A model generated the notes under the pieces. It was given only the letters and a program-made list of their open reading frames with translations, had not been told where the DNA came from and made no database searches. A program made the position numbers and the translations under genes. Positions 3,892 through 26,508 of a stretch of DNA of 26,920 bases are shown in pieces (the first letter of the stretch is position 1; every line of letters starts with the position of its first letter). Source of the DNA: Octopus sinensis. Its lineage: Eukaryota. Location of the stretch: positions 1 through 26,920 of the forward strand of contig NW_021834105.1 in assembly GCF_006345805.1 (NCBI RefSeq), written 5' to 3'.

Positions 3892-3965
3892 GCCCCGGTA
3901 GCTCAGTTGGTTAGAGCGTCGTGCTAATAACGCGAAGGTCTAGGGTTCGAGTCCCTGTCGGGGCA
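3892..3965 (+). tRNA. tRNA-Ile (anticodon AAT)
   Basis: Full cloverleaf: acceptor GCCCCGG/TCGGGGC, A-box in TAGCTCAGTTGGTTAGAGC, anticodon loop CTAATAA, T-arm TAGGG-TTCGAGT-CCCTG. No encoded CCA; T4 terminator at 3972-3975. An A34 anticodon is typical of eukaryotes. Confidence 0.97.
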
Positions 3966-4159
3966 TTTAAGTTTTACAAAAAATAAGTGTTGATTAAAAT
4001 TGGCTAGATACATGTTGGCCTGCAGTCTAAAATTATCTCAACAAAATCTGGCTGCCTCTGTTCATTATGCTCTAAAGATACTAGAAAATTTATTTTCCTA
4101 ATCCAAACGATCTTATTGGCTGTTGTGCGTGGCACAGCTGTTCTATTCGAAATACATAG

Positions 4160-4569: not shown

Positions 4570-4767
4570 ATTGGCGAGCATCAAACGAGACACTCTCCAC
4601 AGTTCTCTTAAGAACAGTTGACTGTATATAAGCCTGTAGAGACTTATCTACACTTAGCTGTACCGCTTGTGGTATTTGGTGACCAGTCTATCCCATGTCA
4701 TCACACACGGAATGACATTGACTTTGCACTGGTGTATCCGCCTTAGCTCGTTTGCAAGGAGGTCATA
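4570..4767 (-). mobile_element. 3' fragment of a second RLE-type non-LTR retrotransposon family
   Basis: Minus translation YDLLANELRRIHQCKVNVIPCVMTWDRLVTKYHKRYS / frameshift / VDKSLQAYIQSTVLKRTVESVSFDARQ. Recalled as the C-terminus of RLE retrotransposon proteins; not searched. Confidence 0.6.
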
Positions 4768-4892
4768 AATTCATATTTTGATTGATGGACTCCCATCTTC
4801 CTATTCATTCTTCTGAAGGCTGCAAATTATCCTCTCAGAATTAAACAGTTAGTCATCATCTTTTAATAAATAGCAATAAAAAACGTTTATTC
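4768..4892 (-). pseudogene. Ginger/gypsy-like integrase C-terminal remnant (continues 6459-6810 across the Tc1 insertion)
   Basis: Encodes RRMNRKMGVHQSKYEF, nearly identical to KRMNKKMGVQRSKYEF in the copy at 15240-15290. Confidence 0.6.
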
Positions 4893-4894
4893 TA

Positions 4895-4961
4895 CAGTAC
4901 CGGTCATATGTTTTAGACATTCTGAAAAAATCCCAGTGTTTGATTTTTCTAAAGAAAAATC
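4895..4961 (+). repeat. Tc1-like left terminal inverted repeat (67 bp)
   Basis: Exact reverse complement of 6390-6456, checked base by base. Confidence 0.97.
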
Positions 4962-5174
4962 TTATTAAAAAAATGCTTTTCATTAAGCATTATCCATTTT
5001 TTTTAGTTATTTATTTTTTCCCAATCTCATCGTCACTGTATTTTCGACATCTTGATCTTTTTATAGATTTTGTCGAAACTGGCCCAGTCATATATGTTTT
5101 AGACATTTACGATGCACATCCATAATCTGGAATTTTTAAAAGTTAAAACGAGTTTTTATTAATTAAAACACAAG

Positions 5175-6158
5175 TTAGTATTTAGTTACATCTCCTTTTT
5201 TCGATATTACATCATGTATTCTATTTGGGATCGACAAATACAAGTTTTGAATATAATCATCTCCCATCTTGTTCCATTCATCTTTTGCCATCTCCCATAG
5301 TTGCTTAACGTTCTGAGGGTTTCTATTTCTGATTTTGCTCTTTAAATAATGCCAGCAATTTTCTATTATGTTAAGATCTGGCGATTGTGCAGGCCAATTG
5401 TTTAAAATATTCACTCCTTTTTCAAGCAAATAATTTTTTGTAGACCGTGAAGTATGACATGATGCACCATCTTGTTGGAAAATAAAGTTATCATCATATA
5501 TCTCAGAAAGCCCTTGTTCCAAGATTCGTTGATATTCTACGGAATCTACATTTCCTTCGCACAATATCAAGGCACTTTTTCCATCGTGTCTGATACCGCC
5601 CCAAACCATGATTGAAGGTGCGAATTTCTGAGTTTTCGTTGTGTAGTTCGAATTGAATCTATTTCCAGGAGGTCTCCTTACGAATTCTCGTGCTTTCGAA
5701 ATTAATTCGATGCGGCACTCGTCAGTAAAAATGACCTTATTCCAATCGAATGAAATGTTTCTAGTGCAGAATATTTTTCTCTTCTTGATATTATTAGTTG
5801 AAAGTCTAGGTTTTTTGGCTGCTATTCTTACGAAAAGTTCATTTTTGCGTAAGATTCTTCGTACAGTTTCGACACTGACGGTTTCCGTAATATTTAGGTC
5901 TTTTCTGATTTCATTCGCTGTTTTTTTGGGAAAACGTCGAGACTCACGTACAAGATTCCTTTGAGCACGTGCCGAAAGAATACAATTTCTTCCAGATTTT
6001 GGTCTGTCGTAAAACCCATTTCCATCCAAATACCGTTGGTAAGTGTGATTTACGGCGCATCTGGATATTCCAAGTAAAATCGATATTTCCTGTACGGTAT
6101 GACCATTTTCTCGCATAAAAACAATTCTATGACGCTGTTCAACAGAAAGTCGTGGCAT
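5175..6158 (-). CDS. Tc1-family DDE transposase, 327 aa
   Basis: N-terminal HTH/paired-like region with GR motif; FTDE, MVWGGI, FQQDGASCH and WPAQSPDLNIIEN motifs. The second D and the E are separated by 35 residues. Confidence 0.97.
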   Translation of the reverse strand: MPRLSVEQRHRIVFMRENGHTVQEISILLGISRCAVNHTYQRYLDGNGFYDRPKSGRNCILSARAQRNLVRESRRFPKKTANEIRKDLNITETVSVETVRRILRKNELFVRIAAKKPRLSTNNIKKRKIFCTRNISFDWNKVIFTDECRIELISKAREFVRRPPGNRFNSNYTTKTQKFAPSIMVWGGIRHDGKSALILCEGNVDSVEYQRILEQGLSEIYDDNFIFQQDGASCHTSRSTKNYLLEKGVNILNNWPAQSPDLNIIENCWHYLKSKIRNRNPQNVKQLWEMAKDEWNKMGDDYIQNLYLSIPNRIHDVISKKGDVTKY

Positions 6159-6389
6159 ACTGCTTTCAAATTAATTTAAAACACGTTTCCGATACGAAAA
6201 ATAGAAAAAAAGTATAAATTTTATTGAAATATAATGAATTTAAATAAAATGTCTAAAACATATGACTGGGCCAATTTCGACAAAATCCTTAAACATATGA
6301 AGAAGTCGAAGATAAAGCGAAGATAAGATATGAAAATGATAAATATAAATAATATAGATAATACTTACTAAAAAACTTTTATTTTATTG

Positions 6390-6456
6390 GATTTTTCTTT
6401 AGAAAAATCAAACACTGGGATTTTTTCAGAATGTCTAAAACATATGACCGGTACTG
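6390..6456 (-). repeat. Tc1-like right terminal inverted repeat (67 bp)
   Basis: Exact reverse complement of 4895-4961. Confidence 0.97.
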
Positions 6457-6458
6457 TA

Positions 6459-6810
6459 AATTTCAAGGTTTTCTACACTTCCAATTCTACTATATCAGAA
6501 CTTTTTAAATTTTTCTCAACATCTGATTCAGCAACAATGTTAAATCCAGGAATACCACGATATCTTTGAAGTGGATTAGCGCCTAGAAAATAAAAATGCA
6601 ATTTACAAGTGGACGAATGAGCTCTGATTGCATAAAAATACACCCTTTCGAATGTGTTTTATCCACTCTTGTTTATCATCCGAGGCCATCATTTTGGATA
6701 ACAACCTTGTAATCCTCCGATCAAATCGTTCAAGTATCCCCTGATTGTTCGGCCTTCCATGAGTAATTTTGAATTCTTTACATAAATTAGAAATGTGAAT
6801 ATTTTTGAAT
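6459..6810 (-). pseudogene. Ginger/gypsy-like integrase core fragment with a 24-nt intron (6583-6606)
   Basis: EFKNIHISNLCKEFKITHGRPNNQGILERFDRRITRLLSKMM...W, then a frameshift. AHSST|CANPLQRYRGIPGFN joins after removing GTAAATTGCATTTTTATTTTCTAG, and parallels HSAINETPFKKFRGIYGIN in the 14853-15558 copy. Confidence 0.7.
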
Positions 6811-6857
6811 TCAATTGTCGTAAGTATTAATAAGTAAATTGATTAGAATTTATTTAA

Positions 6858-7547: not shown

Positions 7548-8652
7548 TATACTTCCAAGAAGCTGATATATAGCTCTTGTTCTTGGAAGATGGATTTTAT
7601 TATCATTGGAGCTCCCATGTGTCTTTCAGCCATAGAAGCTTCATTTTCGGAAAAAATTTCGAATCTTTCTAAAATGATCGAGAGGCTTAAAAACATCGAG
7701 GCCCACGTCGCATTTTTTCTCCTCGAAATCACTTTTCCGTCCCCAAGGTCCTTTATACGCTAAGATGTGCACCCTGTTTCCACAGAAGTGACCTCATATC
7801 TGATTTCGATTACATCCTTAAGCTTGGTATGAACTCCCTATGCAATCTTGCTTTCGACGATTCTGGCTGGTCTCAAGCGACCTTACCTGTGCGCTGGGGT
7901 GGGCTTGGTCTGAGATACTGTTCCGATTTGGCTCTTCCGGCTTATCTGTCCTCTCATTTTGCCTTGCGCACTCTCTCAGACATCGTTCTCCGAAACCTTC
8001 CCGAACAGAAAGTGTCTGCAGACTTCATCGCGGCAGGTCTCTTATGGTAGGCCCGGTTGATTCGAGGCGGCCTGAGTCCGAGGACAACCAGCGCCAGTGG
8101 GACAAAATTGTATGTCGGTCTTTGTACGAAAAACTCACTCTCGATACTTAACCAACACAAATTTGTCAGACCCATAAATGTCGCTGTGGCGGAACTGTGG
8201 ACGAGTTCGGGTTACATCCCCTCTCCTGACGGCTTAACTACATCCCCTTTGAGAGGGAAAATTCCTTATATGGGATTCTACTTGCTGTGACACATTCTCC
8301 AACGGGAACCTAGCCAGGTCGGCCGTCGACCCAGGCTTTGCTTCCAATCGCGCTGAAGATCTCAAAATCCTGAAATACGGTCATCTCTCCAGCTTCGTTT
8401 TCACGCTCATCGCCATTGAGACCTCTGGGGTCTTCGGCCGCAAGTCGCTTTGTTTCCTACGCAGTTTGGGGAGAAGAATCGCCAAAAGGAGGGACGACCC
8501 GAGAGAGTCCTTTTGGCTTCTTCAACGCCTCTCCATTGCCGTAATCCGCGGCAACTGCTTCGCAATCCGTGAGGCTGGGAGGGCGCCTAACCTGCGTAGT
8601 CTTAAACAATCTTTCTCCCTTTTCTAACTGTCTATTTGTAATTATAAAAAAA
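7548..8652 (+). mobile_element. Degraded CRE-type retrotransposon (post-RT region plus RLE, internal deletions)
   Basis: Fragments IIGAPM..., MIERLKNIEAHVAFFLL, WSQATLPVRWGGLGLR..DLALPAYLSS, HKCRC..HPLS, PDG, WDSTCCD, IAIETSG and LQRLSIAVIRGN occur in the same order as in 21371-23523. An A-run follows near 8645. Confidence 0.85.
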
Positions 8653-9011: not shown

Positions 9012-11739
9012 TCAATCAAACCAAATACGTTTAAACTCATTCACATCAAAAGAACCATTACATTTGGGACATTTCCTTTTCCTCGTCTGATATAGGTGAG
9101 TCAAGCACTCCAAACAAAACACGTGAAAGCAGGTTGTCAGCACTGCATTCTTCCTATGAATATTACAACACGGACATGTCAGTCTGTCCTAAACATTCCC
9201 TCACATTCTACTACCTTCAGTTCCTTAATCTCATCCAACAACATACTGTCTCCCTCCACTCCCCTCAACTTTGATATCTTGTCCAACTTTCTCTTCAATC
9301 CATCAATCTCCTCCTAACAAAAGTGACAAATCATAACAACCTCATATCTTCTCTCACGGAAATGCCCATCTCTCACCAGTTTACTCTTCTCCTGCAATAA
9401 TCGTTGTGAGTCCTTCAACTGGTCGTAATGTGAGTCAGATATTATTTTGAACTCATCACACTTTTGCAGCACTTCGGAGTATCGACGACCACTCAGCTCA
9501 ATTCGATCATCTCTCAGTCTACACTCAAAATAAGCCTCTTCAACTTGCACTCGCTTTCAAGATTAGTCAATAGTCTTGTTAATGAACTCTCCTTTTCTTC
9601 CAATTGTGAACTAATGTGGATTGTTGTGTCCAACTGATTCCGAAGTAGTCCCTCCTGTTGTCTCCACTCCTCCTTCTCCTTGTTGAGCTCATCAATGACA
9701 TGTCTGTGCTTTATTCTCTTCAATGTTTCATAACAAATTAATACTTCGGCTAACAGTCCCACATAGGCTTGCTCTTTTGCAGTCAACTGGTCTATTAGAA
9801 CTCGATTCCTCTCCTGCATATCTTCTAAAGCTTGGCCTGTCACTTCCATTTCCTGCATTAGAGTATCTTCTTGCTAAAAGTGGCTTCAAATAATCAAGTT
9901 TACCTGTTTGTGCCACGTCAGTTTACGTTTAATGTCTTCGTTGGTAATTCTATGCTGGTTTATACATCTTTGTAGACTCTTTTCGTTCTCACTCGATTCT
10001 TTCAGTCTTCTTATTAGTTCTGAACAAAGGTCCCTAGCCTTGTCCAACTCGCTGATTGTTCCCAATGAATACTATCAATAAACTAATAACTATAAACCTC
10101 AAATTCTTCAAAAATATGTGATTCTGTTCTATAATAATCAGTTAATTAATTGTAATAAAATACCCGGCAAAATCAGGTAGATTGATCTAGTGGTGTTACA
10201 TTAGTAACTAACCTCGTTATTTCTGAGAGTTTCATTTAGTTTAATGTGATATTTATTATTTTTATTCTTCAATTGCTTATTAAAAGCCTGCAGACTATTT
10301 ATAAGATGTCTCATTTCTCTGTGGACGTCATTCGTGTGTTCTTTTATTAAAGCATATTGCTCATTCTCCAGCTTAACCAGTTCTAATTCCTTTTCTTTGC
10401 CTGCTAGTTGTTCAGTCAGTCTAATGATATCCTCCACCTTCTGACTCTCTGATATTTTCTTTCCCGATTTTAAATCATCTTTAATCTGCTGAATTGCTAC
10501 TTTAAGAATATAATTCAATTCGTTGCTTTCTGTCAGTCTGGCCTTCACTCTTGCCAAGTCAGAAATGCAGTGGAAAGCTGTCTTTTCACTGACGACAACT
10601 CGACAGACAAGTCTGGATAGTCCACTCTCTCATTCCCACTCTCCACTAACACAGTCAGCCTGTCAATCTCTTTCTGCATTGTTTTCCAATTCCTGCAGAC
10701 GAGAGTCATTTAAATGTCTAAGATTGTGTTCTTCCAGACGTAGTTTTTGTAGTTCTGTCATATCTTCTGTACTGAGCTGTGGGTTAGTGGGTTCCTGGGG
10801 AGGATTAATGTCCTTTGTCTCTGTGGATATTTTAGAAATGTCTTGCTGTGATTGTTTTAAAGATTCCTCGAGTTTTATTGAATATTTTTCAAGCATGGCA
10901 AATTCATAGTTCAGTTCATCCAATTTCCGTTTATTTTCTGCAGCTGAATTAATTTCAATAGTCAAATTATCATCCGTTTCATTAAGCTATTACGTAATAA
11001 CTCAGTAAGACTAACCTTATAGAATAGTCCACTGTTTTGTTTGTTTACTTTGATCAGTTGGTTGTTTAGACAGACATTTTCATTAGTAAGTTGTGTGACC
11101 AAATCAGCTGAGAGAAGTTTAAGGTTCTCTTGAATAGCACTGTCGGGGGATTCTTTAAGAGTGTTGTAAAACGTGGTTAATTTGTCCAGTTTAGTCACCA
11201 GTCTATGATCTTTGATATATATAGGAAACCCTTCGAAGACCTGATGAAGGATAAGCATTGAAGTATTCGAATATTCAACACGCCTTTGAAATTCCTTCTC
11301 GAGTTCTTCAGTCTCCATTGTCGATATTTTTCTCTGAAACACTTTGAGTGATTCAGTTTCTACAACTAAAAGCAGATGGGTACCATCCGGTGGAATATTC
11401 TCGAAGGAATCACAGTTATAATGTTCAATGAGGCTGCGTACTTCAATATTGTGCTAAGTGTGACTAAGTGGGATTAACTTGGTTCCAATGTCGGTTTATA
11501 AGTGCAAAAAGTGCCTCGTCGGTTTCTCTTCTTTCTTCAAAAACAGCGATTTTGCTTTTTTGTCTAAAGTCTTGATTTTTAGCATATTTGAGGGCTTCAG
11601 AGAGTTTTTGATTTTGAAATCCAAGAATTCGAGATTCCAGTTCTTCCTTGTTATTATTTGAATGTTTATTTAGTACGGAATTAGACGTGCCTTTGAAACT
11701 AGTTCCTTGCAACGTGTCAAAAAATTTATTTTGCCGCAT
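9012..11739 (-). CDS. BRE1: E3 ubiquitin-protein ligase BRE1 (RNF20/RNF40-like histone H2B monoubiquitinase), about 13 exons and about 799 aa after correcting two 1-nt frameshifts
   Basis: N-terminal FQNQKL...[31 protein letters not shown], and C-terminal [29 protein letters not shown]...RKCPKC. Inferred GT-AG introns (plus-strand coordinates): 11454-11478, 11360-11383, 11203-11229, 10987-11015, 10187-10212, 10129-10163, 10072-10097, 9874-9903, 9718-9744, 9519-9544, 9314-9340, 9189-9214. They total 328 nt, leaving 2400 nt. Confidence 0.92.
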
Positions 11740-12004: not shown

Positions 12005-14850
12005 ATGGAGTCTAAAAAGCACAGGAAACTAACACCTTTTTTGCTACTCTCGTTTAATGTTAAAGGAATCGCTAAATCTTAGAAAAGAACAGCATTGTGC
12101 GAAGATCTGTAAAGATACAAAGTCTCTCTTGGATGTTTACACGAGACAAAACTGCATGGGGGATTAAGAGGAACTGTCGGGCTATCACTTCATCTCATTC
12201 CGAAGTGAATGCAGACACTTTGGCCAAGGATTTGTAATAAAAAGAAATTGAAACCTATGGTTCATCGCTTTTGGAGCATAAATGATCGGATTTGTGTACT
12301 TCAGATTAGCATGAATAAGCTTTGCCCATCTAAAAGCTTACTATCCATTATAAACGTATACCCACCCCACAGTGGATGGATTGAAAAAGACCCCACTGAA
12401 ATAGACTTGTTCTACTTTTGTCTGTCTGAAGCTTATTCTGAACTTGTTCCCTCGTCAATAACTATCATTGCTGGCGACCTTAACGCCAAAGTGGGATTAC
12501 GAAGAAACCCGGATGAAACCTTTATGGGAAAACACGGGAGGGGAATGAGGAACGTGGCAGGAACATTACTTGCCGATTTTTGTCAGGCAAACGGTCTATT
12601 CATTTGCAACACTGCATTCATGCACCCTGCAAGACACAAAACTACTTGGGCTGGGTTTAGGAAGAATTTATCCGGCGAATTTATAAATATTTATAACCAG
12701 ATAGATTATATAATCTGTCGATCTAAAGACAAAGCTCTTTTTACTGACGCAAGATCATATAGTGGGTCAAACATTGACAGTGACCACAAAATGGTCATTG
12801 CAAGAATATCACTGAATAAACATCTAAACAAAACAAATATCAAAGGGAGGCAGGATATCATTAGGAAAAGAAAACTCGACCTAAATGGACTCTCAATACA
12901 ACAAAAGGGAGATAACTTGATACGTATTTGGGAAGTGTGGAAACAAATCAATCATTCCCCAAACTTTGGGGACAAATCCAGGAATCAATACGAGGAGCAG
13001 CGGAGAAACAGCTCATGGACACAGAAATTGTTACCACATCACCAAATGGAACTACTGAGATATCGCTCCTTGTGAAGAAACAAAAATCTATTTGACTACA
13101 ATATTAAAATACGGAGGACAAGCACATCAAAGAAAAACTTGGTCGGGAAAGATCGAATATTAAGAAGATCAAGAAGTCCGTGTCATATATGTCAAGGAAG
13201 GAAGCTGAGATACAGATCAAGGCCAGAGAAGCCTTGAAAGACAATGTAAGATATTATGAGGCGATCAGATTATTACGAGGACGTAAACACAGACAAGCAC
13301 TAATCATAAATGACAAAAATAAAAGACGAATTGCAGATTCCACAGAATTAGCAGGACTAATCGCCGGCCACTTGGAGAAACTGTTTAGATCCAACAGCAA
13401 AGGAATTTATGGATATACCGGGAATCCCATGAAATTGGAGTTGGAAATAACTTCTGCAGAAGTGCAAAGAGCATGTGCTAAGCTCAAAAACAATAAAAGC
13501 CCAGGACCAGACGGACTAGGACCAGAGCTACTCAAATATGGAAGTGAAAAGCTAAATGTCCTCATTGCGGACCTCTTCAACGGAATGTTTAAAAGAAACA
13601 ACCATTTACCCATTGACGAGTGATACTGGTCCCTGTCCAAAAACCGAACAAAGCTAAGGGAAAAGTAAAAAAATCTGAGGCCAGTAATTTTTATGAATAG
13701 AATACGGAAAGTTCTTGCAATCATTAAGCTAGAAAGAATAAAACCTCGCATCGAACTATTTATATCCGCTTTTCACAGCGGATTTCGGGAAGGAAGATCG
13801 ACTTCTGACATCGTGTGGACCCATAGATGGCATTGTTCCGCCATTCAAAGGTTCAAAAATGCGACATACATTCTTGGCATCGATATGTCAATGAATCCCT
13901 TGATGAATCTTCTATCCGGATGATCATGGCACTCTTATCAGAAACCTATCTATCGGTCAGGGTACGAGACAAGTGCTCTAAACCATTGAACAACATCTGG
14001 AACATCTCAAGGGATCCGTTATCTCCTATAAAACTGTTTGCATTGAGAGAACTAAAACCATACTATGAAGGAAACGGATCAATGTGGTGGCATACGCGGA
14101 TGACGTGGATTTTATTTCTTTCTTCCGAAATTGATGCCAAATAGACTTGCTGAGTGGTTCCTCAATGTAAATTTGGAGAAAACAGATTTACTGAACTAGC
14201 AAGACAGAAGTCTAAGCTGGACGAACATTGGAGAAAAGTAAAGAAACTCGGATCTCTATTGGGAGACGAACAAACGTTATTATGCGAAAAACACATGCAA
14301 ACAGTGCATACTACGCAGCTTAAAGGAAAATTGCTAAAACGCAAAGGACTCAGCACAAAACACGGATACGATCATACATTCACTAGTGAAACCATACTTC
14401 TATATAATGCCCGAACTTGGGGACTTTCCGTTACAGACAATGACAACCTAGACTCTTTCCATAGAGATCATCTCCGACGTACTCTACCCTCCAAGTGGCA
14501 TTCAAGGCAGAACAGTTTATCCCAGACATCAAGCAAACCAATCTCATCTCTCGAAATTACCCAATGCAGATGGAGGCTGTTTGGAACATTCTAATGATGG
14601 ATTTGGATGCACCGGAAACGCCCGCTAAGGATGACTATTTTGAAGCTGGGGCCATCGTTTTTGTGGGCGACCAAGAAATACTCTCCTGGGTACGCTGGAT
14701 AGAGACCTAAAGAGAGCTGGTAAAGAATTGAAGAACCGGGACGATCTTGATCCACTACGGGACGTCGCCCAAGATCGCGGGAAATGGAATAAACTAATTA
14801 ATCGTATTGTTTCCTGTGCTGCACAATTTGAATGATTACTAAGTAATAAA
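12005..14850 (+). mobile_element. Degraded APE/RT LINE (RTE-like), copy 1
   Basis: Endonuclease motifs SFNVKG, LHET, IAGDLNAKVG, NQIDYI, DSDH. RT motifs KSPGPDG..PELLKYG, LRPV, HSGFREGRST, GIDMS, AYADDVD-like. C-terminal CRWRLFG and AQDRGKW. Many frameshifts and stops. Confidence 0.9.
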
Positions 14851-14852
14851 AC

Positions 14853-15558
14853 CATCCCCAGTCACAAGTTTATAAATTTGAAATAAATTAGGGTGTAATT
14901 GAGCGCTTTAACCAAACATTGACACGGAGTATGGCTAAACTGATGGATAAAGAAGGAACTAAAAATTGGAAACAATTTTTAGACAAAGTAACTTTTTCTT
15001 ATACTACGACACACCACTCGGCGATCAATGAGACCCCCTTCAAAAAGTTTAGGGGTATTTATGGAATTAACACTGTGATTCATGAAATACCAGGTTATAA
15101 TCTTATTTATAATTTAGATGGAAATAATGAGGCATCGTTTGTCGAAGATGAACTGAATGTATTACGATGTATTTATTTTTAGAAACGAATAATAAAATTT
15201 TTAATTTCACTCATCAAGACATGAATTCATCTTATTTTAAAAGAATGAATAAAAAGATGGGAGTACAAAGGTCAAAGTATGAATTTGAAATAGGGAATGA
15301 GGTATAATTAAATAATAACAGTTTAGGTTCGAATTTTAAAAGATTGTAGGACGAATCCGTCATTGAAGCTACACCGATTTGAATCCCCATATGAAGAAAA
15401 GGGAAAAGTAAAAAATATAATGTCTAATAACAGATTAATGGTTAGTTGTCTTTCCTAACATTTAGATCGAATTACGAAATGAAACCAAGATAGTTACTAT
15501 GAATAGAGTTAAAAATGTTAAGGTTTTTGAATATTTAACAATTATCTTGAGTCAGTAA
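14853..15558 (+). pseudogene. Ginger/gypsy-like integrase (3' half) with up to five 24-25-nt introns
   Basis: HPQSQ|GVIERFNQTL is restored by removing 14868-14891. Further GT-AG introns at 15094-15117 (in-frame, putative), 15159-15182 (needs one extra 1-nt shift), 15302-15326 and 15441-15465. Spliced C-terminus: FEIGNE|VRILKDCRTNP...MSNNRLM|IELRNE. Confidence 0.8.
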
Positions 15559-15699
15559 TTAGTGTCAAACTATGTAGGTCACCTTGGTCGCCAGCGTAGT
15601 TCGCGACACAATAGATGGAATAATAAATTCGCTCAAATATCGCAAAATCCAGAAAGAATGTCTGGTTTATTCGGTCGCTAAATTAAATTTAGACTTTTC

Positions 15700-17910
15700 T
15701 TATGCAACACGGCTTTTGAACGCCCTTCTCGGCATAAATCCACCTGGACGGGAAGTCGACGTGACAAAAATGGGAACTGCGTGCCTATTTATAACCAAAT
15801 TGACTACATCATCTGCCGACAAAAAGATGTATGTCTTCTATTGGACTCTCGCTCTTATGGTGGATCACTCGTTGACAGTGACTACAGGGTGGTTGTCAGC
15901 AGATTCAGTCTGCAGAAATCATACTTACTGAAAAAATCAAATCATCGAATGACTCATACACCGGGCAGATACCTGACGGAAAAACTGGTCTTCTCACCAT
16001 CGACCCGAATCATCTACAAATCATCGATTGAAGAATCACTCAAAAATATGAAGCCTGGACTAACGCCGACTGCCGCTTGGAAAGCTATGTCCAGTGGAAT
16101 CCATCAGGCCGCAGATAAATGTGTTGGAAAACACCCAAAGAACAAGAACACTATCAGATTATGCCATCCGGATGTTTTCGCCCTATCGGCTGAACAATAA
16201 GAGCTCAAGTTGACGATTGAGAACACTACGGATCCGGATACCAAACATGCACTGAAAGCCCGACAAGCAATTATTCAGAAACAAATAAAGCGACTGAATC
16301 TCCAATACGGTCGGGATACTCTGACTTCCCGACTTAAAGAGCTGGAATCTCTCAAGGACAATGCACAAATGTTTCAAGCATTACGGCTGCTCAATAGGAA
16401 GAAAAGCAGCCCCAAACCTCGACTCCTAACCAACAAAGGAACTGAAGTATTTGACCCGGTGGAACAGGTAGTAAGCCTTATAGCGGATTTCTTTAAACAA
16501 CGATTCAACACGAACACGGTGCCGATATCACCTTTCTCTGCCCCAGCACGACCTCTGAGGAATAAAATTACTCTGGATGAAGTTAAAAAGGCAGCTAGCA
16601 GGCTAAAAAACAATCGAGCTGCGGGGCCGGACGACATCAGTGCGGAGCTTTTAAAATACGGACCCGAGTCTCTCTTAAGGAATATAGCGAACATTCTGAA
16701 TGATATGTTTACTGAAAACGACTTACTCCACTCGGATCCGGAATTCTAATCGTATCGGGGACAGAGTGAACACCTTTCTGTCGCCGAACCACAGCGGATT
16801 CAGAGAAGGAAGATCTACCGCAGACGTTCTGTGGGGCTACCGATGGCGATGTGCAACCCACCAAAGATTCAAAAGTGTCGCAATCATCCTGGAGATCTAT
16901 ATGTCGAGAGCTTTCGATAGCATTCACCGAGATCTGCTAATGAAGATCCTGCGGAGCTTCTTAGAAGAGGATGAAACCAGAATGATCCAGGTACTACTGA
17001 CAAACACGGAACTTACTGTCCGCCATGGGAAGACTTTGTCCAGACCCTTTTTAAACAAATGTGGGAACTCCTCAGGGTAATTCCCTTTCACCACTGCTCT
17101 TCGTGATTTACCTCGAAGCTTCCCTACGAGAGCTGAGAAGCCTATACGGTGAGTCAATCACCGAAATTATCTATGCGGATGATGTCGATTTCGTGTCGAG
17201 CGACAGATCAGCACTGGCTAGCCTGCTGGAGATTGCACCAGGAAAACTCGGGGAATGGTCTCTAAAAATGAACCCGGACAAGACGGAAGTGGTTATCACG
17301 CTCAGACACTCAACTTATGGAAACATGGAGACTATCCAAGAAGCTTGACTCACTGCTTGGTGACCGGGAGGACATAATGCGTAGAAAAACCCTGGCTGCT
17401 GTTGCTCTAAAAACTGTTATTAAGAATTGTTTATGACACTGCTCGATGGGCCCATCACTACGCTCTAGAGTCTACAACGCTTTCGTCAAACCTGTACTAC
17501 TTTACAACTCCTCAACATGGGGCATTTCTGATTCAGATTTAAAGAACTTCGATTCTCCACAGAAACTAGCTTCGTTCCCTGAACTACTTACACTGGCCGA
17601 AGAAAATCTGCAACTCGACTATTTACAACATCAGCAACTCGGGGCCAATTAGCCGGGACATCGTCAATTGCTGCTGGAGGCTATTTGGACACATCTTGAG
17701 GATGGATCCAACTTCACCTCCCTACGTGACCATGGAAGAATACTTCCTATCAGATGACGTAAAATTCCGAGGACGACTCAGAACAACCCTACCGGTTGTT
17801 CTGCAAGACGACTTGAGGCATTTAAAGAAAACCCTGAAGACCTGTGATGATCTCGACGAACTTCGGATACTGGCCCAAAACCGCGGAAGCTGGAAATCGT
17901 TGGTACAGAA
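15700..17910 (+). mobile_element. Degraded APE/RT LINE (RTE-like), copy 2, 5'-truncated
   Basis: CNTAF..RHKSTW, IYNQIDYIICR, RAAGPDDISAELLKYG, HSGFREGRST, MSRAFDSI, GTPQGNSLSPLLF, YADDVDF, KPVLLYNSSTW, RGRLRTTLP, AQNRGSW. Related to but diverged from copy 1. Confidence 0.9.
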
Positions 17911-20058
17911 CAGACGTCACCAAACTACGGCCCGCGGGCCGATCCGGCCTGCACACATTTTTATCCGGCCCGCGCACTATTTCGAGCTATTCAATTAATA
18001 CCTTAATAATTAACTTAAATAAAAACTTTAATTAAAAAATTAAACTATTTTTGCAAAGATTTAATTCGAAAAAAACTTATCAGCATTAACGTTAAATTTT
18101 TCTTTGTTGCTATGTCTAATATGAAAAGAAAGGGTGACCGCGAATGCCGTGTATTCAATAAATTAGGGAATTGAAGTATTTTTTTGCGAAAGATGAATTA
18201 AAGCAGAAACTTATGTTTAATATGGCCACGAACATCTCTCTGTTATGAAGGAGTATCACTTCGACGTCATTATGAAACGAATCATGTTCCGATATATTCC
18301 AAGTACACTGGAAAGCTACGTGAGGATAAAGTTGAATCACTGAAACGCACTTTACAAAAATTCAACAAGGCCTTATAAAAAAAAATTTTGAAAATAATGA
18401 AAATGTAACAAGAGCTGGATACGAGATAACGAAAATTATTTCACAACACGGGAAACCCTTTAGTGATGGATTATTGAAGCAGTTAATTGTTGAAGCAGTT
18501 AAATTCTTCCTTATTTGATGGAATAAGTTTGTCGGCGAGTTCTGTATCACGGAGAACTGAAGAGCTTGGAAAAATATATATTTACAAATTTGTGAAAAGA
18601 CAAGTAATATGTTGTGGTATTCTCTTGCATTGGATGAGTCAGTTGACATTTCGGGAACATCGTAACTTCTTATTTTTATTCGTGGAGTTGATGAGAATAT
18701 TTCCATAACTGAAGAACTGGCATCTGTTTGTTCTATTCATGGAACAACCACTGGAAAAGATATTTTTGATGAATTGGAACAAACTATAAGTGACTATAAC
18801 CTTGAATGGGAGAAACTGAGTTGTGTTACGATTGACGGGCAAAGAATATGGCTGGTTCTAAAAAGGGTCTAGTTGGGCAAATAACTAATAAATTGGAGGA
18901 ATTACATATTTCAAACACTTTGTTCATTCATTGCATCCTTCATCAGCACGCACTATGTGCGAAGGCTCTTAATATTTCATGTGTGTTGAATCCAGTTATT
19001 CGCATAATAAACTTTGTTCGAGGGAGCTCACTTAATCACCGTCAGTTTAAAGTTTTACTTGACGATTTTGGATCTGAATATTTTGACTTACCATATTACA
19101 CTGCAGTTAGATGGCTTAGCTGTGGTAATGTATTAAATAGATTTTATAAACTCCGAAGTGAGATTGATATTTTTCTAACCAGTAAAAATAACTATTATCC
19201 CGAATTATCAGATCTTGCTTGGCTATCAAAATTATCATTTTTGGTTGATGTTACAACTCACATGAATGAGCTAAATCTGAAATTACAAGGAAAGGAAAAC
19301 TTAATTTGTGATTTCTACAGGATAATTAAAGCATTTCGACAAAAATTGATGTTATTCGAGTCACAACTTGGAGTACGTCAGTTTTCACACTTTTCTTGTT
19401 TTAAAAGTTTTTGTGAGGCAAACTGTAATGAGATCGACATTACTTTCCAAATTGGGATTATCAAAGAATTAAAACATCATTTTTTACATAAGTTTTCTGA
19501 ACTTGACAAAATTGAAAGCGATATAATTTTGTTCGAAAATCCATTTTCTTGTAATGTTGAAAATGTTCAACATGAATTACAATTAGAAGTTATTGACTTA
19601 CAATCAAATGAACAGCTCAAAGATTGTCACAGACGGACCAAACTCGCTGAGTTCTACGAATATCTCAAGGATGATGAGTTTCCGAGACTAAAGAATTTTG
19701 CGATAAAGATGATTTCTATATTTGGCACAACTTACCAATGTGAGCAAACGTTTTCGAGGATGAAATATGTTAAGTCTGCCCATCGTGCAAGATTGACTGA
19801 CGGACACTTAAAATCAATTCTCATGATAGGATGCAGCAATTTAAAACCAATATTGATGAACTTATCAAAAAAAGATCACAGTTCCATAGCTCTCATTAAA
19901 ATTTTTGTTTACTTTATTTTTGTTTAAATTAGTTTTTATTGTAAAAAACACACTTATGAATTTCTAGTAAAACTATAATCCTATGCACGTGCTCCGGCCC
20001 GCGTTCATTGTGTTGGGGTCAATCCGGCCCGCGAGTGCATAAAGTTTGGTGACCCCTG
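17911..20058 (+). mobile_element. hAT DNA transposon, Buster/SPIN (GTF2IRD2-like) group
   Basis: Termini CAGACGTCACCAAACT and the reverse complement of CAGGGGTCACCAAACT (14/16). Subterminal CGGCCCGCG repeats occur at both ends. Flanking 8-mers GTACAGAA and GTCTAGAC match at only 5/8. Confidence 0.88.
18112..19927 (+). pseudogene. hAT transposase; 5' half frameshifted, 3' 359 aa open (18848-19927)
   Basis: KRKGDRECRVF..., RRHYETNH zinc finger, ALDESVD, VTIDG, HCILHQHALC, VRWLS, LNLKLQGK, and hAT dimerisation motif FGTTYQCEQTFSRM...RLTD. Confidence 0.9.
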
Positions 20059-20066
20059 GTCTAGAC

Positions 20067-20234
20067 AATGAACCAGAAATGGAGATCGTTGCTAAAAGTT
20101 TGCATGACTTCTCGCATGGAGGAGTTAACAAAATTGAATATGAATTTCGACAACGATATTTTACAGTTAAAAATGAGATTATTCGAAAAGTCATTCGAAA
20201 CTGTGAAATTTGTAAATTTGCGCGACCCTTAAAA
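20067..20234 (+). pseudogene. Integrase N-terminal HHCC zinc-binding fragment (Ginger/gypsy-like)
   Basis: LHDFSHGGVNK...RYF...IRNCEICKFARPLK, an H-x3-H ... C-x2-C pattern. Confidence 0.7.
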
Positions 20235-20274
20235 GTTTTAACTTTTTTAAATCCTAGATTGGAGATATAAATAA

Positions 20275-20680
20275 CTAGCTCGGCAGCTCGCTTCGCTCAC
20301 CGCGACCTAGCTCCTGCGGAGGGCCTGTTTCATCAAACAACTATAAGTTTATGTAGATGTATAAAACTACCTGGTTTAATGTAACCCTATTCTATCGCCT
20401 GTTGATAAACGATGTTTGTCGTCCGTCCTTCCTTGGCATATATGAATAAATTTTCTCTTCTGCCTACCTTCGAGCATCCCACATACAGCTGTCCATGTGA
20501 AAAGCACTCATTCTCTAAAAATAACCCAACTACCTTTAATGACTGTCACTGGGCCTTGTTTATTGTCATTGCAAAACTCATCCTCAAAGGAAATTGCAGC
20601 CTTTTAAATCTAAATGGTAATTCATCAGAAATTATCGGAATTCGTGGAATATAAACATCCTCACCTCTATACTTAATTAA
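20275..20680 (-). mobile_element. Helitron 3' remnant: PIF1-like helicase C-terminus plus 3' hairpin and CTAG end
   Basis: Minus frame [13 protein letters not shown]...[28 protein letters not shown]...CFSHGQLYVGCSKVG...TNIVY ends at TAG 20387-20389. An imperfect GC-rich hairpin (GCGGTGAGC-GAA-GCGAGCTGC) and a CTAG|T terminus at 20275 follow. Confidence 0.9.
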
Positions 20681-21142: not shown

Positions 21143-23568
21143 CATCACGGAAAAATCCCCCCAGTGGTTCAAAACCCAAGTTAGTCGTAAACTCATGGAT
21201 GGCGACATCCGTGCGGCAGTTCGGGTCCTTTCGTCCGCTGATTCACTTGCTGAATCTACTGCCGAGACTTTGGAACACCTCAAAAACAAACATCCGATGC
21301 CCCCAGATGACTTACGGGAGTTTCCCACACGAGACAATGCAATTATACTGTCAATTTCTGATGATGAATTTTGGAAGGGATTAAATCTTTCAGACCGAGT
21401 AGCAGTGGGGGATTTGATGGTCTCCGGCCGAGTCATATAAAGGACATGATTTCCCGATTGACTATGGAGACTGGAATCCGCCTGATCAAGTGTATTACCA
21501 AGCTTGTCGAACGGATTGTCAATGCTGAGATTTCAGGCTTTGCAAGGGATCTACTTTTCTGTTCACACCTTATTGCTTTCCGAAAGAACGATGGAGGAGT
21601 CCGCCCCATTGCAGTCGGTAATGTCTTCCGGAGGCTCGCATGCAAAATTGCAGCCCGAAGAGTCTGTCCCCGTGTTGCCGCTGAATTATCTCCAGTCCAA
21701 CTGGGAGTTGGTGTTTCCAACGGATGTGAAGCTGCTGTCCACGCGACAAGAGCTTTTTTTTCACCTGACACAAGACATTCCCCAAATTCCTTTGCGGTGA
21801 AGCTGGATATCTCAAACGCGTTCAACAGTCTGAGAAGGGACTGTATGCTGGAATCGTGCTCGCAGCGTACCCCAGAGATCATGAGTCTGGCTCACCTTGC
21901 TTACGGGTCCGAAAGTTCGCTTGTCTTTGACAAACACATTGTCCGTTCACGGACTGGAGTCCAACAAGGTGACCCTCTTGGGCCCTTACTATTCGCTCTG
22001 TCAATCGACGAGGTGGCTCGTAATGTAAAGACACCTCTCAACCTTTGGTACCTTGACGATGCCACTATTGGTGGCCCTGTTGATTTTGTCTTGGATGAGC
22101 TATATAAAATTGTTCCTGCCCTGGCAAAAATGGGGCTGATAATCAACACCAAAAAAACTGAGATCATAAATATCTCAGTCCCAATTCAAGACTTTGGCTT
22201 AGTAATGGAAAAGATTTCAGAAATCTTGCCAGACACAAAACAAACACGCCTCAACGATGTTTATTTTCTTGGGTGTCCTTTCGGAGAGTCCGAAGTGCAA
22301 AACCACCTCAGAGCTAAGAGTGTCGAAATGTCCCGTTTTACTGAACGCCTCTCTCTACTCGACTCCCACACGGCCTTTTTCCTCCTCAAAAATTGCATCC
22401 ACGTGCCCAAACTGTATATTTATTGAGATGCTCGCCCTGCTTTATACAAGATGAAATATTGCATTCTATCGATGATACGTTAAGATTGTGTGCCGAGTGG
22501 ATCCTAAATGTCCGTTTCGATAATGACGGGTGGACCCAGTGTAAACTACCTCTTAATTCTGGCGGAGCTGGCCTAAGATCCGCCCTGGACCTTGCCCTCC
22601 CAGCTTTCCTGTCCTCTCACTCATCCTGCCGAAGGCTATCCTTGGAGATTCTACATAAATCCCCCGAATCTTCTTTGGACAGGCCTTTTGAAGATGGATG
22701 TATGCTGTGGAAGGAATCAGGATTAAAATTCCCGATCCAAACATCACTCCAACAGAGCTGGGACAAATTACGCTGCGAATTCACCGCAGACAACCTGGCA
22801 ATGAGGCTCGACCAGCACCGCCTCGCCTGCTTACGCTCTGCAGCTGTGCCACACAGTGGGTCATGGCTGAATGCTATGCCAATTGCTGGCCTCGGAACAT
22901 TATTAGAGGATGACTGCATGCGTATCGGTACTGCACTGAGACTCGGACTTGACATCTGCGAGCAACATCGTTGCAGATGTGGAAAAATGGTTGACGTCAA
23001 AGGTGTACACCCACTCTCTTGCAAACGAAGTGCTGGCCGAGCTCCTCGGCACTCCGCTATTAACAATGTTATCTTAAGAGCCCTTGAGTCGGCGGGCTTC
23101 CCCTCGATCCTAGAGCCAGTGGGCTTGGATCGTGGTGATGGGAAAAGACCCGATGGAATGACCACTTTTCCCTACTCCTGTGGAAAATCGTTGGTTTGGG
23201 ATTCAACGTGTGTTGACACCCATTCCAAAACTAATATGATCTCTTCTGCTGTCTCTCCAGGTTCTGCAGCAGATGCTGCAGAGCAAAGAAAAATTGCCAA
23301 ATACGCAAATCTTGGACAACGGTACCGCTTCGTACCTATCGCTGTGGAGACTTCTGGGGTAACCGGCCCTCTTACGACTTCTTTCATCAGAGAAGTCGGA
23401 GGAAAAGTTGCTAGGCGACGTGGGGAGCCTCGAGAAGTGTCATGGTTATTCCAACAAATTGGAATAGCTGTCGTTCGCGGCAATGCACACTCCATCATGC
23501 GTGCAACCGCAAGTGCCTTTTAATCATTGACTAACTTATTTCATTTAAAAAAAAAAAAAAAAAAAAAA
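21143..23568 (+). mobile_element. CRE-clade non-LTR retrotransposon (RT plus RLE), 5'-truncated, with 22-nt poly(A) at 23547-23568
   Basis: KLMDGDIRAAVR; RT motifs GGVRPIAVG, QLGVG, KLDISNAFN, GVQQGDPLGPLLF, WYLDD; CCHC knuckle CRC...HPLSC; RLE motifs RH, KRPDG, WDSTCVD, KY, PIAVETSG, QQIGIAVVRGNA. Split into three ORFs by 1-nt losses near 21368 and 22410. Confidence 0.93.
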
Positions 23569-23749
23569 TTTTAGTAGATTAAAAAAATTTGATTAAAATT
23601 TTGATTTTTTTTATTTTGTTTATTCAACTGTATTACAATATTGACATTAAGTTAAGCTTCAAGGTCACGTCAGGTATCACGCGGCCCATAGGCATCACGC
23701 AAACCATGTCACATAATATTTCATCTGAAAATTGTGAATCTGTTTTGAA

Positions 23750-23935
23750 AAACATCACAAAGCAGGCGAGAAAATGAAGAACAAAAGAAAATGGAGCCAC
23801 GATGAAGAAAATATAAATATCGGAGATTCTGTCATTATTAAACATGACATCGATGCTAATACCAACAATAGAAGGCTTCCCTTATTTGATAATGTCGATA
23901 CAACAAAATATAAAATTATCGAAGAAAATAATTAC
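23750..23935 (+). pseudogene. Ginger/gypsy-like integrase C-terminal fragment
   Basis: NINIGDSVIIKHDIDANTNNRRLP parallels FEIGNEVRILKDCRTNP of the spliced 14853-15558 copy. Confidence 0.5.
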
Positions 23936-23955
23936 AACAAAAATTTTGCTATTTT

Positions 23956-23967: not shown

Positions 23968-24346
23968 CTAATAATGCAATTATTGGTTTTTTCTGGAAAT
24001 ATGGGCGTATTTAATGCAATGAAAGCGCAGATTCGTCGTTTTTATGCTTATTTTTCAAATTTATTTGTTTTTAGACTGTCTTGTAATGTAGGCCCAGTGA
24101 TTTTGATAAACTTCATCGAAAAATTCCTGTCAGCATTCACACTTCCATACCAATTATCGGCATATTTAAATTCTTGTAATATTTTTAGATTGTAATTTTT
24201 GTATGTGTGTACAATGGAGAGATTTATACGTTTGAAATATATCCCTTCTTTATAATAGACAATACAAATTTCGTTTCAACAATCGGGTCTGGAGGAGACA
24301 CAGCATTCGATTGGATAACCACACAGTATTTTTTAATAATTATGAC

Positions 24347-26172
24347 TAGGGCAACCAATTGCAATTTTTTGCAATTAAATATAATTTAATTAAAATTCGA
24401 TAAATAATAAAGTAATGAATAGACATTAATTTTAATTATATTTTTATTCGATTTAAATTTGCAATTTTTTGCAATTTTTTGTAGTCATTTTACAATTTTT
24501 TGCAATTTTTTAATATTAAAAAATAATATAATTATAAGTAAAAGATTATTAAAACGTGTTTTAGTTGTTTGTTGTAATGGGTAAAAGGACAGTGTCACAG
24601 AAAATTTCATTTTATGCAAAGAAATTCCCCGAGTTTGTTATTGACAGTGAAGGGAATTTATTTTGCTCCAATTGCTCAACTGTTGTACGGTGTGACACAA
24701 AATTTTTTGTTGATGCGCACCGTTCTTCAAAAAAACATTAAAAGCACACAGTATTTCTTTGAATTTAAATTTATAGAATGGACAAATTCATCTCAGAGTT
24801 CACAAACATTTCTTTCGGCGATAACGGATACTCGAAAGGATTGGGGGATCAAAGTAACACAAGCGTTTTTGGAGGCAAACATACCAATTTATAAAATCAG
24901 ACATCCTTCCCTCATACGGCTTTTTGAGCAGGAAACATATCCTTTGCCATCTGAATCATCTTGCAGGTTAAATGTTAAAGAAATATCAAAATATAAAATT
25001 AATACCATTCAGACTCATTTACTGTTGTTTTTTTAAGTTATTCAATAGTGGGGAATGTGTTTTTTTTGTTTGTGATGAAGCCCAAATCAATGGAACTCGT
25101 TTTTTAATTACTTTGATTGGGAAAATCTCCACTCCAAAAAATCTTCATTTAGTATCGTGTACCAATCTATATTATCCGCCTACTACTTCAACAATTTGTG
25201 TTGAGGTGGACAAAGTAATAAAGAAATTTTCTATTGAACGTGAAAATTTTATATTATTCGTTACAGATGGGGCGAGATATATGACCAGTGGTATATATAA
25301 ATAAATTTAATTTTAGCTGGGGCATCAATGAAATTGATATACCAAAATCTTTTCCACGTGACTTGCGTGTCACATTTATTGCACAACTGTGCTCTAAAGA
25401 TTAAGGCATACTTCGCAGATGTTGATGAATTGATTTCGTCTATAAAGGCTGCCACAGTCAAAAACAAGAGACGTTTGGAGATGTTTTCACGAATCGGAAA
25501 TCCACCCGAAGTTGTGGTTACAAGATGGGGAAGCTGGCTAAAAGCAGCAAAATATTACTCCCAGAATCTTCCAGAAATTATTAAAATCGTATCTGAATTT
25601 GAAGGAGATGGAGTTTTAATACAAAATGTTTTAGTTTTTAATTATTTTAGGCAAAAAAATCAGTGAATAATCCTACGTTGTTTCCAAGCTTAACCCAAAT
25701 CAGTTCAAATTATTTGGGATTAATTGAAATGATTTCAAATACTGAATTGCTTGATTACTCCATTGCAACAGCTTATGGTGATCTAAACACCCTAGACTTT
25801 ACATCAGATCCATGCGACATAAAATCCTATATATCAAAAAAGCTTGAGAAATCAGGAATACTAAGTATTCTTGAATTCTCAAATAAGAATCTATCGCCAG
25901 AAGTTTATTCACATCTCAGAAAATGTAGCGCAAGTTCAGCATCTATCGAAAGGGCAATATCTCTTTTGACGAAAATTCTTAGTAAAGAGAGGAACTTTAA
26001 ACCTGAAAATGTTCAGGAATATTTGATTTCCTATTACAATAAATAATTTCGTTAATTTTTTGCATAATGTAATGTTTACAATTAAAAAAATTATTTTTGC
26101 AATTTTTTACAATTTTTAAAATTCATTTTTGCAATTTTTTTTATTAAAAAGTGCAATTTTTTGGTTGCCCTA
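24347..26172 (+). mobile_element. hAT DNA transposon (CGGBP1-like zinc finger plus DDE), full-length
   Basis: Perfect 12-bp TIR TAGGGCAACCAA, perfect 8-bp TSD ATTATGAC (24339-24346, 26173-26180), and subterminal TGCAATTTTT repeats at both ends. Confidence 0.95.
24577..26046 (+). pseudogene. hAT transposase with micro-introns (24751-24776, 25291-25316, 25628-25650; possible degenerate 25013-25037)
   Basis: Zinc finger LFCSNC...DAHRSSKKH, EANIP, CDE, VTDGARYMTS|AGASMK, HVTCVSHLLHNC, TRWGSWL, GVLIQN|AKKSVNNP, SASIER. The introns join ORF-track pieces in frame; one extra 1-nt loss is needed near 24739. Confidence 0.85.
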
Positions 26173-26508
26173 ATTATGACCAATTATTCTGGAATATACA
26201 CTACGCAAAATGAGGCCATTGGAATAGCTCACGATGCGATTTAAGAAGCCGCAAAGACTGATCGACGAACAGGAGGATCTTCCCATAGTATATTTTGATA
26301 AATAATATTTTAGTTTCCACAATATCTGTTAATGGGATAAGTTTAGTGGCGTTATCTCCACTCTTCTAACATGTATTGCTCCTAATCTTCATCATTTTAT
26401 TATTTTAAAACACTTACCTTAAATTATTGAAAAAATACTATAAATTTTTGAAAAATGACTCACGTCTGGACTGTTACAATTATAAGATCCAAATACCACA
26501 AAAAGTAT

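Follow-up and report, generated by a model that had tools for sequence, protein, structure and literature searches.

A short integrase-type DNA transposon with nine probable micro-introns in contigs of likely dicyemid origin from an octopus assembly

We hold with good confidence that the integrase-like sequence in the middle of the window (the whole stretch of 26,920 nt analysed here) belongs to a 1.8-kb DNA transposon with inverted ends, likely of the Ginger2/TDD type, whose gene contains nine micro-introns that are very likely spliced and whose host is likely a dicyemid, and that the copy in the window is a dead remnant. The parts of this copy, numbered after the complete gene, were as follows.

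14849..15608 (760 bp), + strand: 3' remnant of a Ginger-like DNA transposon of family A that has lost its 5' part; 95% identical to positions 928-1720 of copy L002
14827..14848, no strand: 22-nt filler at the deletion junction of the transposon fragment with a LINE truncated at its 3' end; LINE matches stop near 14826
14850..14867, + strand: last codons (NHPQSQ) of the exon that precedes the catalytic Glu
14868..14891, + strand: putative intron 5 of 9, 24 nt, phase 0, with an in-frame TAG
14892..15093, + strand: exon 6, helix of the catalytic Glu and end of the integrase core; weak Pfam rve_3 match (E 0.009); at least 151 protein matches in the octopus assembly (G000)
15094..15117, + strand: putative intron 6, 24 nt, phase 1, without a stop; the acidic linker starts here
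15118..15158, + strand: exon 7, acidic linker
15159..15182, + strand: putative intron 7, 24 nt, 5' end damaged and frame broken in this copy
15183..15301, + strand: exon 8, linker helix leading into the C-terminal domain
15302..15326, + strand: putative intron 8, 25 nt, phase 0; site present in families A to E
15327..15440, + strand: exon 9, beta-rich C-terminal domain with FESPY
15441..15465, + strand: putative intron 9, 25 nt, phase 0, with CTAAC; site present in families A to D
15466..15521, + strand: exon 10, up to the stop used by other copies (15519-15521)
15556..15608, + strand: right terminal inverted repeat (TIR), ending in ...CGCGACA

The window copy is a dead 3' fragment, corresponding to the 3' 40% of an element of 1.7-1.8 kb with TGT...ACA inverted ends. 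Its right end is kept to 15608 and is directly followed by CAATA (15609-15613), the same 5-mer that forms the target site duplication (TSD) of copy L023. The left 930 bp are gone, and the 5' half of the transposon was not found anywhere else in the window. The upstream LINE is also shortened, since in all five other copies compared it runs about 45 nt further, to a TAA-repeat tail. One deletion took both the left 930 bp of the transposon and the tail of the LINE. Insertion of the LINE into the transposon was rejected as the cause of the truncation: the LINE is itself without a 3' tail at this place, and the 22-nt filler separates the two. The dN/dS value between the window copy and its close relative L002 was 0.70, as expected for a decaying copy.

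A sequence-only reading of the window had placed five introns in this fragment, at 14868-14891, 15094-15117, 15159-15182, 15302-15326 and 15441-15465, and all of them were found there. Its estimate of up to five introns needs correction, as the full gene has nine. Once the first gap is taken out, HPQSQ-GVIERFNQTL is restored, as had been claimed, and so is the D(35)E spacing, counted on the peptide of copy L005; this gap sits inside the D(35)E spacer, just ahead of G-V-I-E. Retention of four of the five introns would stop or shift the frame. The exception is intron 6, which stays open if retained and shows GT..AG in 30 of the 33 aligned copies; families B to D have a phase-1 intron at about the same place. 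The extra 1-nt shift that had been needed at 15159-15182 proved to be real and peculiar to the window copy, as intron 7 is 26-27 nt long and of phase 1 in intact copies, with a 5' splice region unlike that found here. For its part, the gene end proposed at 15558 agrees with the open frame of the window copy, which is carried that far by the loss of 1 nt in an A-run, but not with the other copies, which stop at 15519-15521. Both the damage to intron 7 and the loss in the A-run could reflect either decay or an assembly error.

Searches of the assembly yielded at least 47 DNA matches for the window stretch, at least 69 for the missing 5' half and at least 151 protein matches. The complete copies among them were 1.7-1.85 kb long, began with TGTCGC or TGTGAC and closed with the inverted sequence. 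A perfect 5-bp TSD was observed in 32 of the 33 two-ended elements with distinct flanks, the remaining one showing a mismatch (six alternative inner pairings in the same loci were set aside); most TSDs were TAATA or TATTA, and none of the 33 fitted 4 or 6 bp. The TIR ranged from a perfect core of 27 bp in L005 to an imperfect repeat of about 57 bp in L085. L005 and L006 were 97.6% identical, and L081 and L085 99.8%, with different TSDs within each pair, a pattern that points to recent movement. These full-length copies keep the gaps and have neither LTRs nor a reverse transcriptase (RT), in accordance with the DNA transposon that had been predicted, and the element is multi-copy, not a single-copy domesticated gene. 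Internally deleted copies and miniature elements of about 600 bp with similar ends were also present in the assembly. Two of the latter (L078:2158-2762 and L089:1287-1894; 605-608 bp), which have TGTCGC ends and are flanked by 5-bp TSDs, were likely moved by this transposase.

The gene is best seen in the natural copy L005, a 1,782-bp element filled by one ORF. Removal of nine GT-AG introns (23-27 nt) rendered a stop-free frame of 415 amino acids, compared to a maximum of 99 in the unspliced sequence. When the best ORF reachable on removing any GT..AG of 22-28 nt was computed as a test of chance, L005 reached 423 amino acids, its other strand 73, and 100 dinucleotide shuffles no more than 209 (mean, 86). 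L005 was the only one of 16 modelled family-A copies free of stops and shifts; the gene model is least certain at the first intron and the start codon. The sequence-only reading had called such a family invisible to ORF-based TE annotation, which holds only for ORF-length filters, with a longest unspliced frame of 99 amino acids; the element would still be detected by protein homology or by RNA-seq at 90% identity.

The spliced L005 protein carries an H2C2 motif and a D,D(35)E triad, and Pfam Integrase_H2C2 and rve matched separate family-A exons, each below its curated cut-off. The protein ends at 415 amino acids, without an OTU or Ulp1 tail. A motif search of nine peptides from the assembly found no YPYY and no literal GP[YF]; the FESPY of exon 9 presumably occupies the place of GPY/F in gypsy integrases. 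Pfam scanning detected RT, RNase H, OTU or Ulp1 domains in none of 70 free-standing relatives of 350-700 amino acids, picked by length among the 150 listed matches of an HMMER search. The nearest full-length relative, P0011, gave a structural model with a pLDDT of 87 that aligned over its full length with foamy-virus and Ty3 integrases, and an Atlas search with it returned integrase clusters only, with integrases of large DNA viruses among the look-alikes. A word-index protein search found no match for one 53-amino-acid exon and nine weak matches for a 130-amino-acid exon of L089.

The nine gaps of 23-27 nt are very likely introns removed by the host spliceosome, judging from how gaps and exons have diverged. 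Compared with L005, substitutions in 57 loci amounted to 0.084, 0.078 and 0.168 at codon positions 1, 2 and 3, respectively, to 0.128 in intron bodies and to 0.034 at the GT/AG ends. In the same loci there were 141 indels per 6,508 intron bases and 160 per 37,412 exon bases, an enrichment of about five-fold in introns. The dN/dS values between subfamilies (0.18, 0.33 and 0.16; two further pairs were saturated) indicate purifying selection on the exons. Among families A to F, which share 42-70% protein identity, the introns are 22-29 nt long and cannot be aligned, and they occupy the same codon in the same phase. With P0011 as the sole guide, six of the nine intron sites were recovered in L005 and three of the five in the window, including that at 14868-14891; introns 6 and 7 lie within the low-confidence acidic linker, which this outside guide cannot align. 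Spurious intron calls in the linkers of L078, L081 and L100 were excluded.

It might be supposed that the gaps are never spliced, being A+T-rich insertions or relics in the dead copies of a pseudogene family. Most copies do contain stops or shifts, the window copy is broken, and as many as 9 of 35 copies show non-canonical splice ends at a given intron, which we read as decay. We regard this explanation as highly improbable, since GT/AG is kept four times better than the intron bodies, positions and phases hold across families as divergent as those above, the exons appear to be under purifying selection and one copy is fully open after removal of the gaps.

A host gene in the window served as a control for intron size.

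9019..11739, - strand: BRE1-like host gene; weak Pfam BRE1 match (E 0.015), RING match (E 5e-7), seven clear introns of 24-35 nt

Automatic modelling of the spliced gene introduced several spurious introns, and only the seven clear ones were kept. An Atlas search with a BRE1 exon returned generic coiled coils only. The frame also changes at 10630-10662 (minus strand) without a clear GT-AG intron, which may be due to a non-canonical intron or to an assembly error.

Families of the element differ in which introns they have. The eight modelled elements formed one clade, ((A,B),((C,D),(E,F))), with support of 95/88 in a carefully built tree of 31 rows (a second tree, of 116 rows, was a quick search only), and about ten intron sites were in use across them. 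The intron at alignment column 248, equivalent to 14868-14891 in the window, is shared by families A, B, E (L087) and F and is precisely absent from C and D, for which one loss would be the simplest reading. That at column 53 is present in A, C, E and F and absent from B, while those at columns 175 (C to F) and 189 (A and B) are mutually exclusive and lie 14 codons apart. The comparison of related families suggests that micro-introns have likely been gained and lost inside a mobile element. Precise loss in an element that moves only as DNA might come about through conversion by spliced cDNA that the abundant LINEs would produce. A search for processed copies of family A, devoid of introns, revealed no precise loss at any of the nine sites in loci L001-L100 (14 duplicates left out). 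Three copies of one family-A subgroup (L059, L060 and L067) have no intron 7 as a result of an in-frame deletion that also removed about six linker codons.

Further pieces of such elements lie elsewhere in the window.

20061..20275, + strand: family-C fragment with the H2C2 exon and a putative 23-nt intron at 20235-20257; 62 of 64 amino acids identical to L085; Pfam Integrase_H2C2 (E 2e-7)
6476..6836, - strand: decayed relic of the core, older and more distant, with a 24-nt intron candidate at 6606-6583; 52 of 100 amino acids shared with family C
4767..4817, - strand: continuation of the same relic past an inserted Tc1 element
23632..23713, + strand: family-C terminal repeat, ...CCATGTCACA then TAATA; 93-98% identical to family-C ends
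23768..23944, + strand: weak and distant C-terminal-domain fragment; 18 of 56 amino acids

Related pieces had been proposed in three regions, which correspond to the family-C fragment at 20061-20275, the relic at 4767-4817 plus 6476-6836 and the weak, distant match at 23768-23944. The Tc1/mariner element that sits in the older Ginger-like relic (4879-6472) has long TIRs and an unbroken, intron-free frame of 331 amino acids. A hAT-like DNA transposon with short inverted ends (24339-26177) contains micro-intron candidates of 23-26 nt at 24751-24776, 25291-25316 and 25628-25650, so that micro-introns may not be confined to the Ginger family, and a decayed hAT transposase lies at 18113-19927 (Dimer_Tnp_hAT, E 2e-6; open part of 363 amino acids). 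Two kinds of non-LTR retrotransposon were also observed, one with RT and, by eye, a C-terminal restriction-like endonuclease (21368-23523, 7691-8627 and 2608-2931) and another with an N-terminal endonuclease (12209-14826 and 15682-17998); no micro-introns were seen in those of the window. A tRNA-like sequence with an AAT anticodon was recognized by eye at 3893-3966.

As regards the host, the element-bearing contigs quite probably come from a dicyemid that was co-assembled with its octopus host, a view drawn from genomic context and not from a dicyemid marker gene. The assembly has 13,516 contigs with a total of 2.7 Gb. Contigs C1 to C30, four of which were checked for size (C1, C2, C10 and C30; 15-213 Mb), carried none of the listed element matches, and C31 measures 22 kb. 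Molluscan hemocyanin repeats were located on C5 and C28, and a small contig gave two further matches. At least 17 of the element-bearing contigs carry innexins too, and unplaced innexins were 23-41% identical to the chromosomal ones. In the accessible text of the respective reports, a dicyemid genome is described with a median intron of 27 bp and 21 innexin hits (PMC6543705), and that of Dicyema with 49% repeats and 36.7% GC (PMC6736024).

That the contigs are instead unplaced DNA of the octopus itself, or of another organism with short introns (myxozoan, ciliate or microsporidian), seems improbable to us. The public annotation does label an innexin on an element-bearing contig as the host's, and none of 31 hits in a protein search bore a dicyemid label. 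Against such origins speak the lack of chromosome-scale contigs among the listed matches and the dense genes with introns of 24-35 nt. Innexins mark an animal, and the code is standard, with TAA and TAG as stops. Myxozoans have as hosts fish plus an annelid or bryozoan. Among 51 animal genomes, moreover, only the myxobolids and Dicyema share introns of this kind (PMC13644364). A dicyemid thus remains our preferred host. A second gene-dense animal genome, with introns of about 25 nt and expanded innexins, appears in the unplaced contigs (e.g., C1794, C9082, C12462 and C8692), and six innexins of these contigs bear the host's label in the public annotation.

The closest named proteins are labelled as microsporidian, from Dictyocoela roeselum, D. 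muelleri and Nosema granulosis (P0011, P0010, P0034, P0017 and P0028). P0011 is 43-50% identical over its full length to the families of the assembly, compared to 42-49% among A and C to F themselves (the window fragment left out). Together with two more Dictyocoela proteins it formed the sister group of the eight modelled elements, with moderate support (82/83; 98/88 with P0018). P0011 comprises 458 amino acids on a contig of 1,475 bp; the less than 100 bp left over is not enough for six 22-nt introns, which rules out six or more introns of this kind. The available part of one study reports Ginger elements from microsporidia (PMC5751038), and that of another cites a microsporidian that lives as a hyperparasite in a dicyemid (PMC4150386), so that transfer between microsporidia and dicyemids followed by intron gain is plausible. 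The fuller scenario, which we put forward tentatively and hold to be less likely than not, would have an intron-free Ginger moving between microsporidia and the dicyemid lineage and gaining about ten micro-introns there, i.e., one per 46 codons, with gain and precise loss still ongoing. If this were true, a DNA-only transposon would provide a record of gained and lost introns that is both fast and datable, and full splicing could be a switch limiting transposase output. Loss of introns in microsporidia is equally possible, and the short contig of P0011 may be mislabelled.

For the element itself we propose that an intact copy would be transcribed and then spliced to give a transposase made up of an N-terminal extension, an H2C2 finger, a D,D(35)E core and a beta-rich C-terminal domain. 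The enzyme would bind both TIRs and insert the CA-3' ends at A+T-rich sites, the two joints being staggered by 5 bases, also moving internally deleted copies and the miniature elements of about 600 bp in trans. Since only DNA would move, the introns would be inherited with each copy. Protein would be obtained from the element only if every intron were spliced, and selection would therefore maintain GT/AG along with an intron length suited to splicing in the host. The adaptation to host micro-splicing that had been suggested is only one explanation of intron size, which mutation bias or a length window of the host spliceosome would explain equally well, because introns of the likely host are generally short.

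Ginger transposons with introns and dicyemids with 27-nt introns were each already known, and the basic result is therefore no surprise. In the open literature covered, nothing was found on Ginger in dicyemids or on introns below 30 nt in transposons, nor did the passages covered of a bioRxiv survey of DDE transposons contribute on this matter. Words starting with "transpos" are absent from the main text, as far as accessible, of both Dicyema genome papers (PMC6543705 and PMC6736024); such families may be on record in the supplements of these papers, in Repbase or in subscription journals. What is new is the presence of nine introns, compared to the maximum of four tabulated for Ginger1, their precise turnover between families and the microsporidian-labelled relatives without room for these introns. 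Related mobile elements in one genome, with intron changes that can be mapped, make gain and loss testable within one gene lineage, and the nearest known relatives, in intron-poor microsporidia, offer a possible starting state. The natural open copy is a compact substrate for studies of minimal-intron splicing. The results also carry a warning, as what seems to be a parasite genome of considerable size lies in unplaced contigs of a host assembly, with genes publicly labelled as the host's.

With respect to classification, the Ginger-like label given by the sequence-only reading stands insofar as this is an integrase-like transposon with introns, with the qualification that it resembles Ginger2/TDD rather than Ginger1. 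Membership in the Ginger2/TDD clade is rather probable, as a fit by description, the trees holding no named Ginger1 or Ginger2 protein. There is some chance, which we consider the lesser one, that the element represents a separate lineage of integrase-like DNA transposons, neither Ginger1 nor Ginger2, common to microsporidia and environmental eukaryotes, its introns being equally real. Its 1.8 kb is less than any autonomous Ginger in the accessible tabulation (2.6-7 kb; PMC2836005), and the 5-bp TSD, the short TIR core, the GPY/F-like C-terminal domain and a supported clade of stand-alone proteins of about 400-460 amino acids (SH-aLRT 95 in the quick 116-row tree) speak in the same direction; Ginger2/TDD, described as a divergent group, is matched instead by the TGTNR ends, by the A+T-rich targets, by a TSD of 5 bp as in TDD-4/5 and by the absence of YPYY, OTU and Ulp1. 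We consider extremely improbable a remnant of a gypsy LTR retrotransposon or of a Polinton, or a domesticated single-copy integrase gene. It is true that the predicted fold resembles foamy-virus and Ty3 integrases, that the nearest relatives are publicly named "Gag-Pol" or "Pol polyprotein" and that the Atlas look-alikes include large DNA virus integrases. Complete elements, however, measure 1.7-1.85 kb from one inverted end to the other and have TSDs, which leaves no room for RT, polB or LTRs, and there are dozens of dispersed copies. The ends are inverted and not direct as in Ty3/gypsy, no RT was found, and RT polyproteins grouped apart from the relatives of the element in the quick tree. 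The "polyprotein" relatives are only 180-458 amino acids long, and P0011 and P0017, the two scanned, have no RT domain. An intact ORF and paired ends argue against a deletion product of a longer element.

Ginger2/TDD is one of the closest known systems. According to the accessible text of its description (Bao et al. 2010, PMC2836005), this divergent group has TGTNR ends, A+T-rich targets and a TSD of 4 bp in metazoans or 5 bp in TDD-4/5, and lacks YPYY, GPY/F, OTU and Ulp1. The present element agrees with it in the H2C2 and DDE transposase, in TIRs with TGTNR ends, in A+T-rich targets and in the lack of YPYY, OTU and Ulp1, and with TDD-4 and TDD-5 in the 5-bp TSD; of GPY/F only the literal form is missing. 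It differs in its length (1.8 kb versus 2.7-6.7 kb), in its TIRs (a perfect 27-bp core versus 45-297 bp) and in the GPY/F-like FESPY of its C-terminal domain, and its nine introns have no counterpart column in the Ginger2 table of that text. Metazoan Ginger2, with TIRs of 45-180 bp, is distinguished further by a TSD of 4 bp (PMC2836005) or 6 bp (PMC6839031), as given in the parts accessible of both sources.

From what the same text gives on Ginger1 (PMC2836005), an integrase-like transposase, TGT ends and introns at positions common to families are shared with the present element. Ginger1, however, has 0-4 introns instead of nine, a 4-bp CCGG/CCGT TSD that was found in none of the 33 elements, and YPYY, GPY/F and a C-terminal OTU or Ulp1, none of which was found here. 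GingerRoot (PMC6839031, accessible text) and Polinton similarly use an integrase-related enzyme in an element with TIRs, but they have a 6-bp TSD and mostly TA (GingerRoot) or AG (Polinton) ends and are much larger. Finally, the introns are like the ultra-short ones of dicyemids and myxobolids, i.e., GT-AG, A+T-rich, 22-30 nt long and with weak splice signals, which in the accessible parts of those reports (PMC6543705, PMC6736024 and PMC13644364) are described in host genes and not inside transposons.
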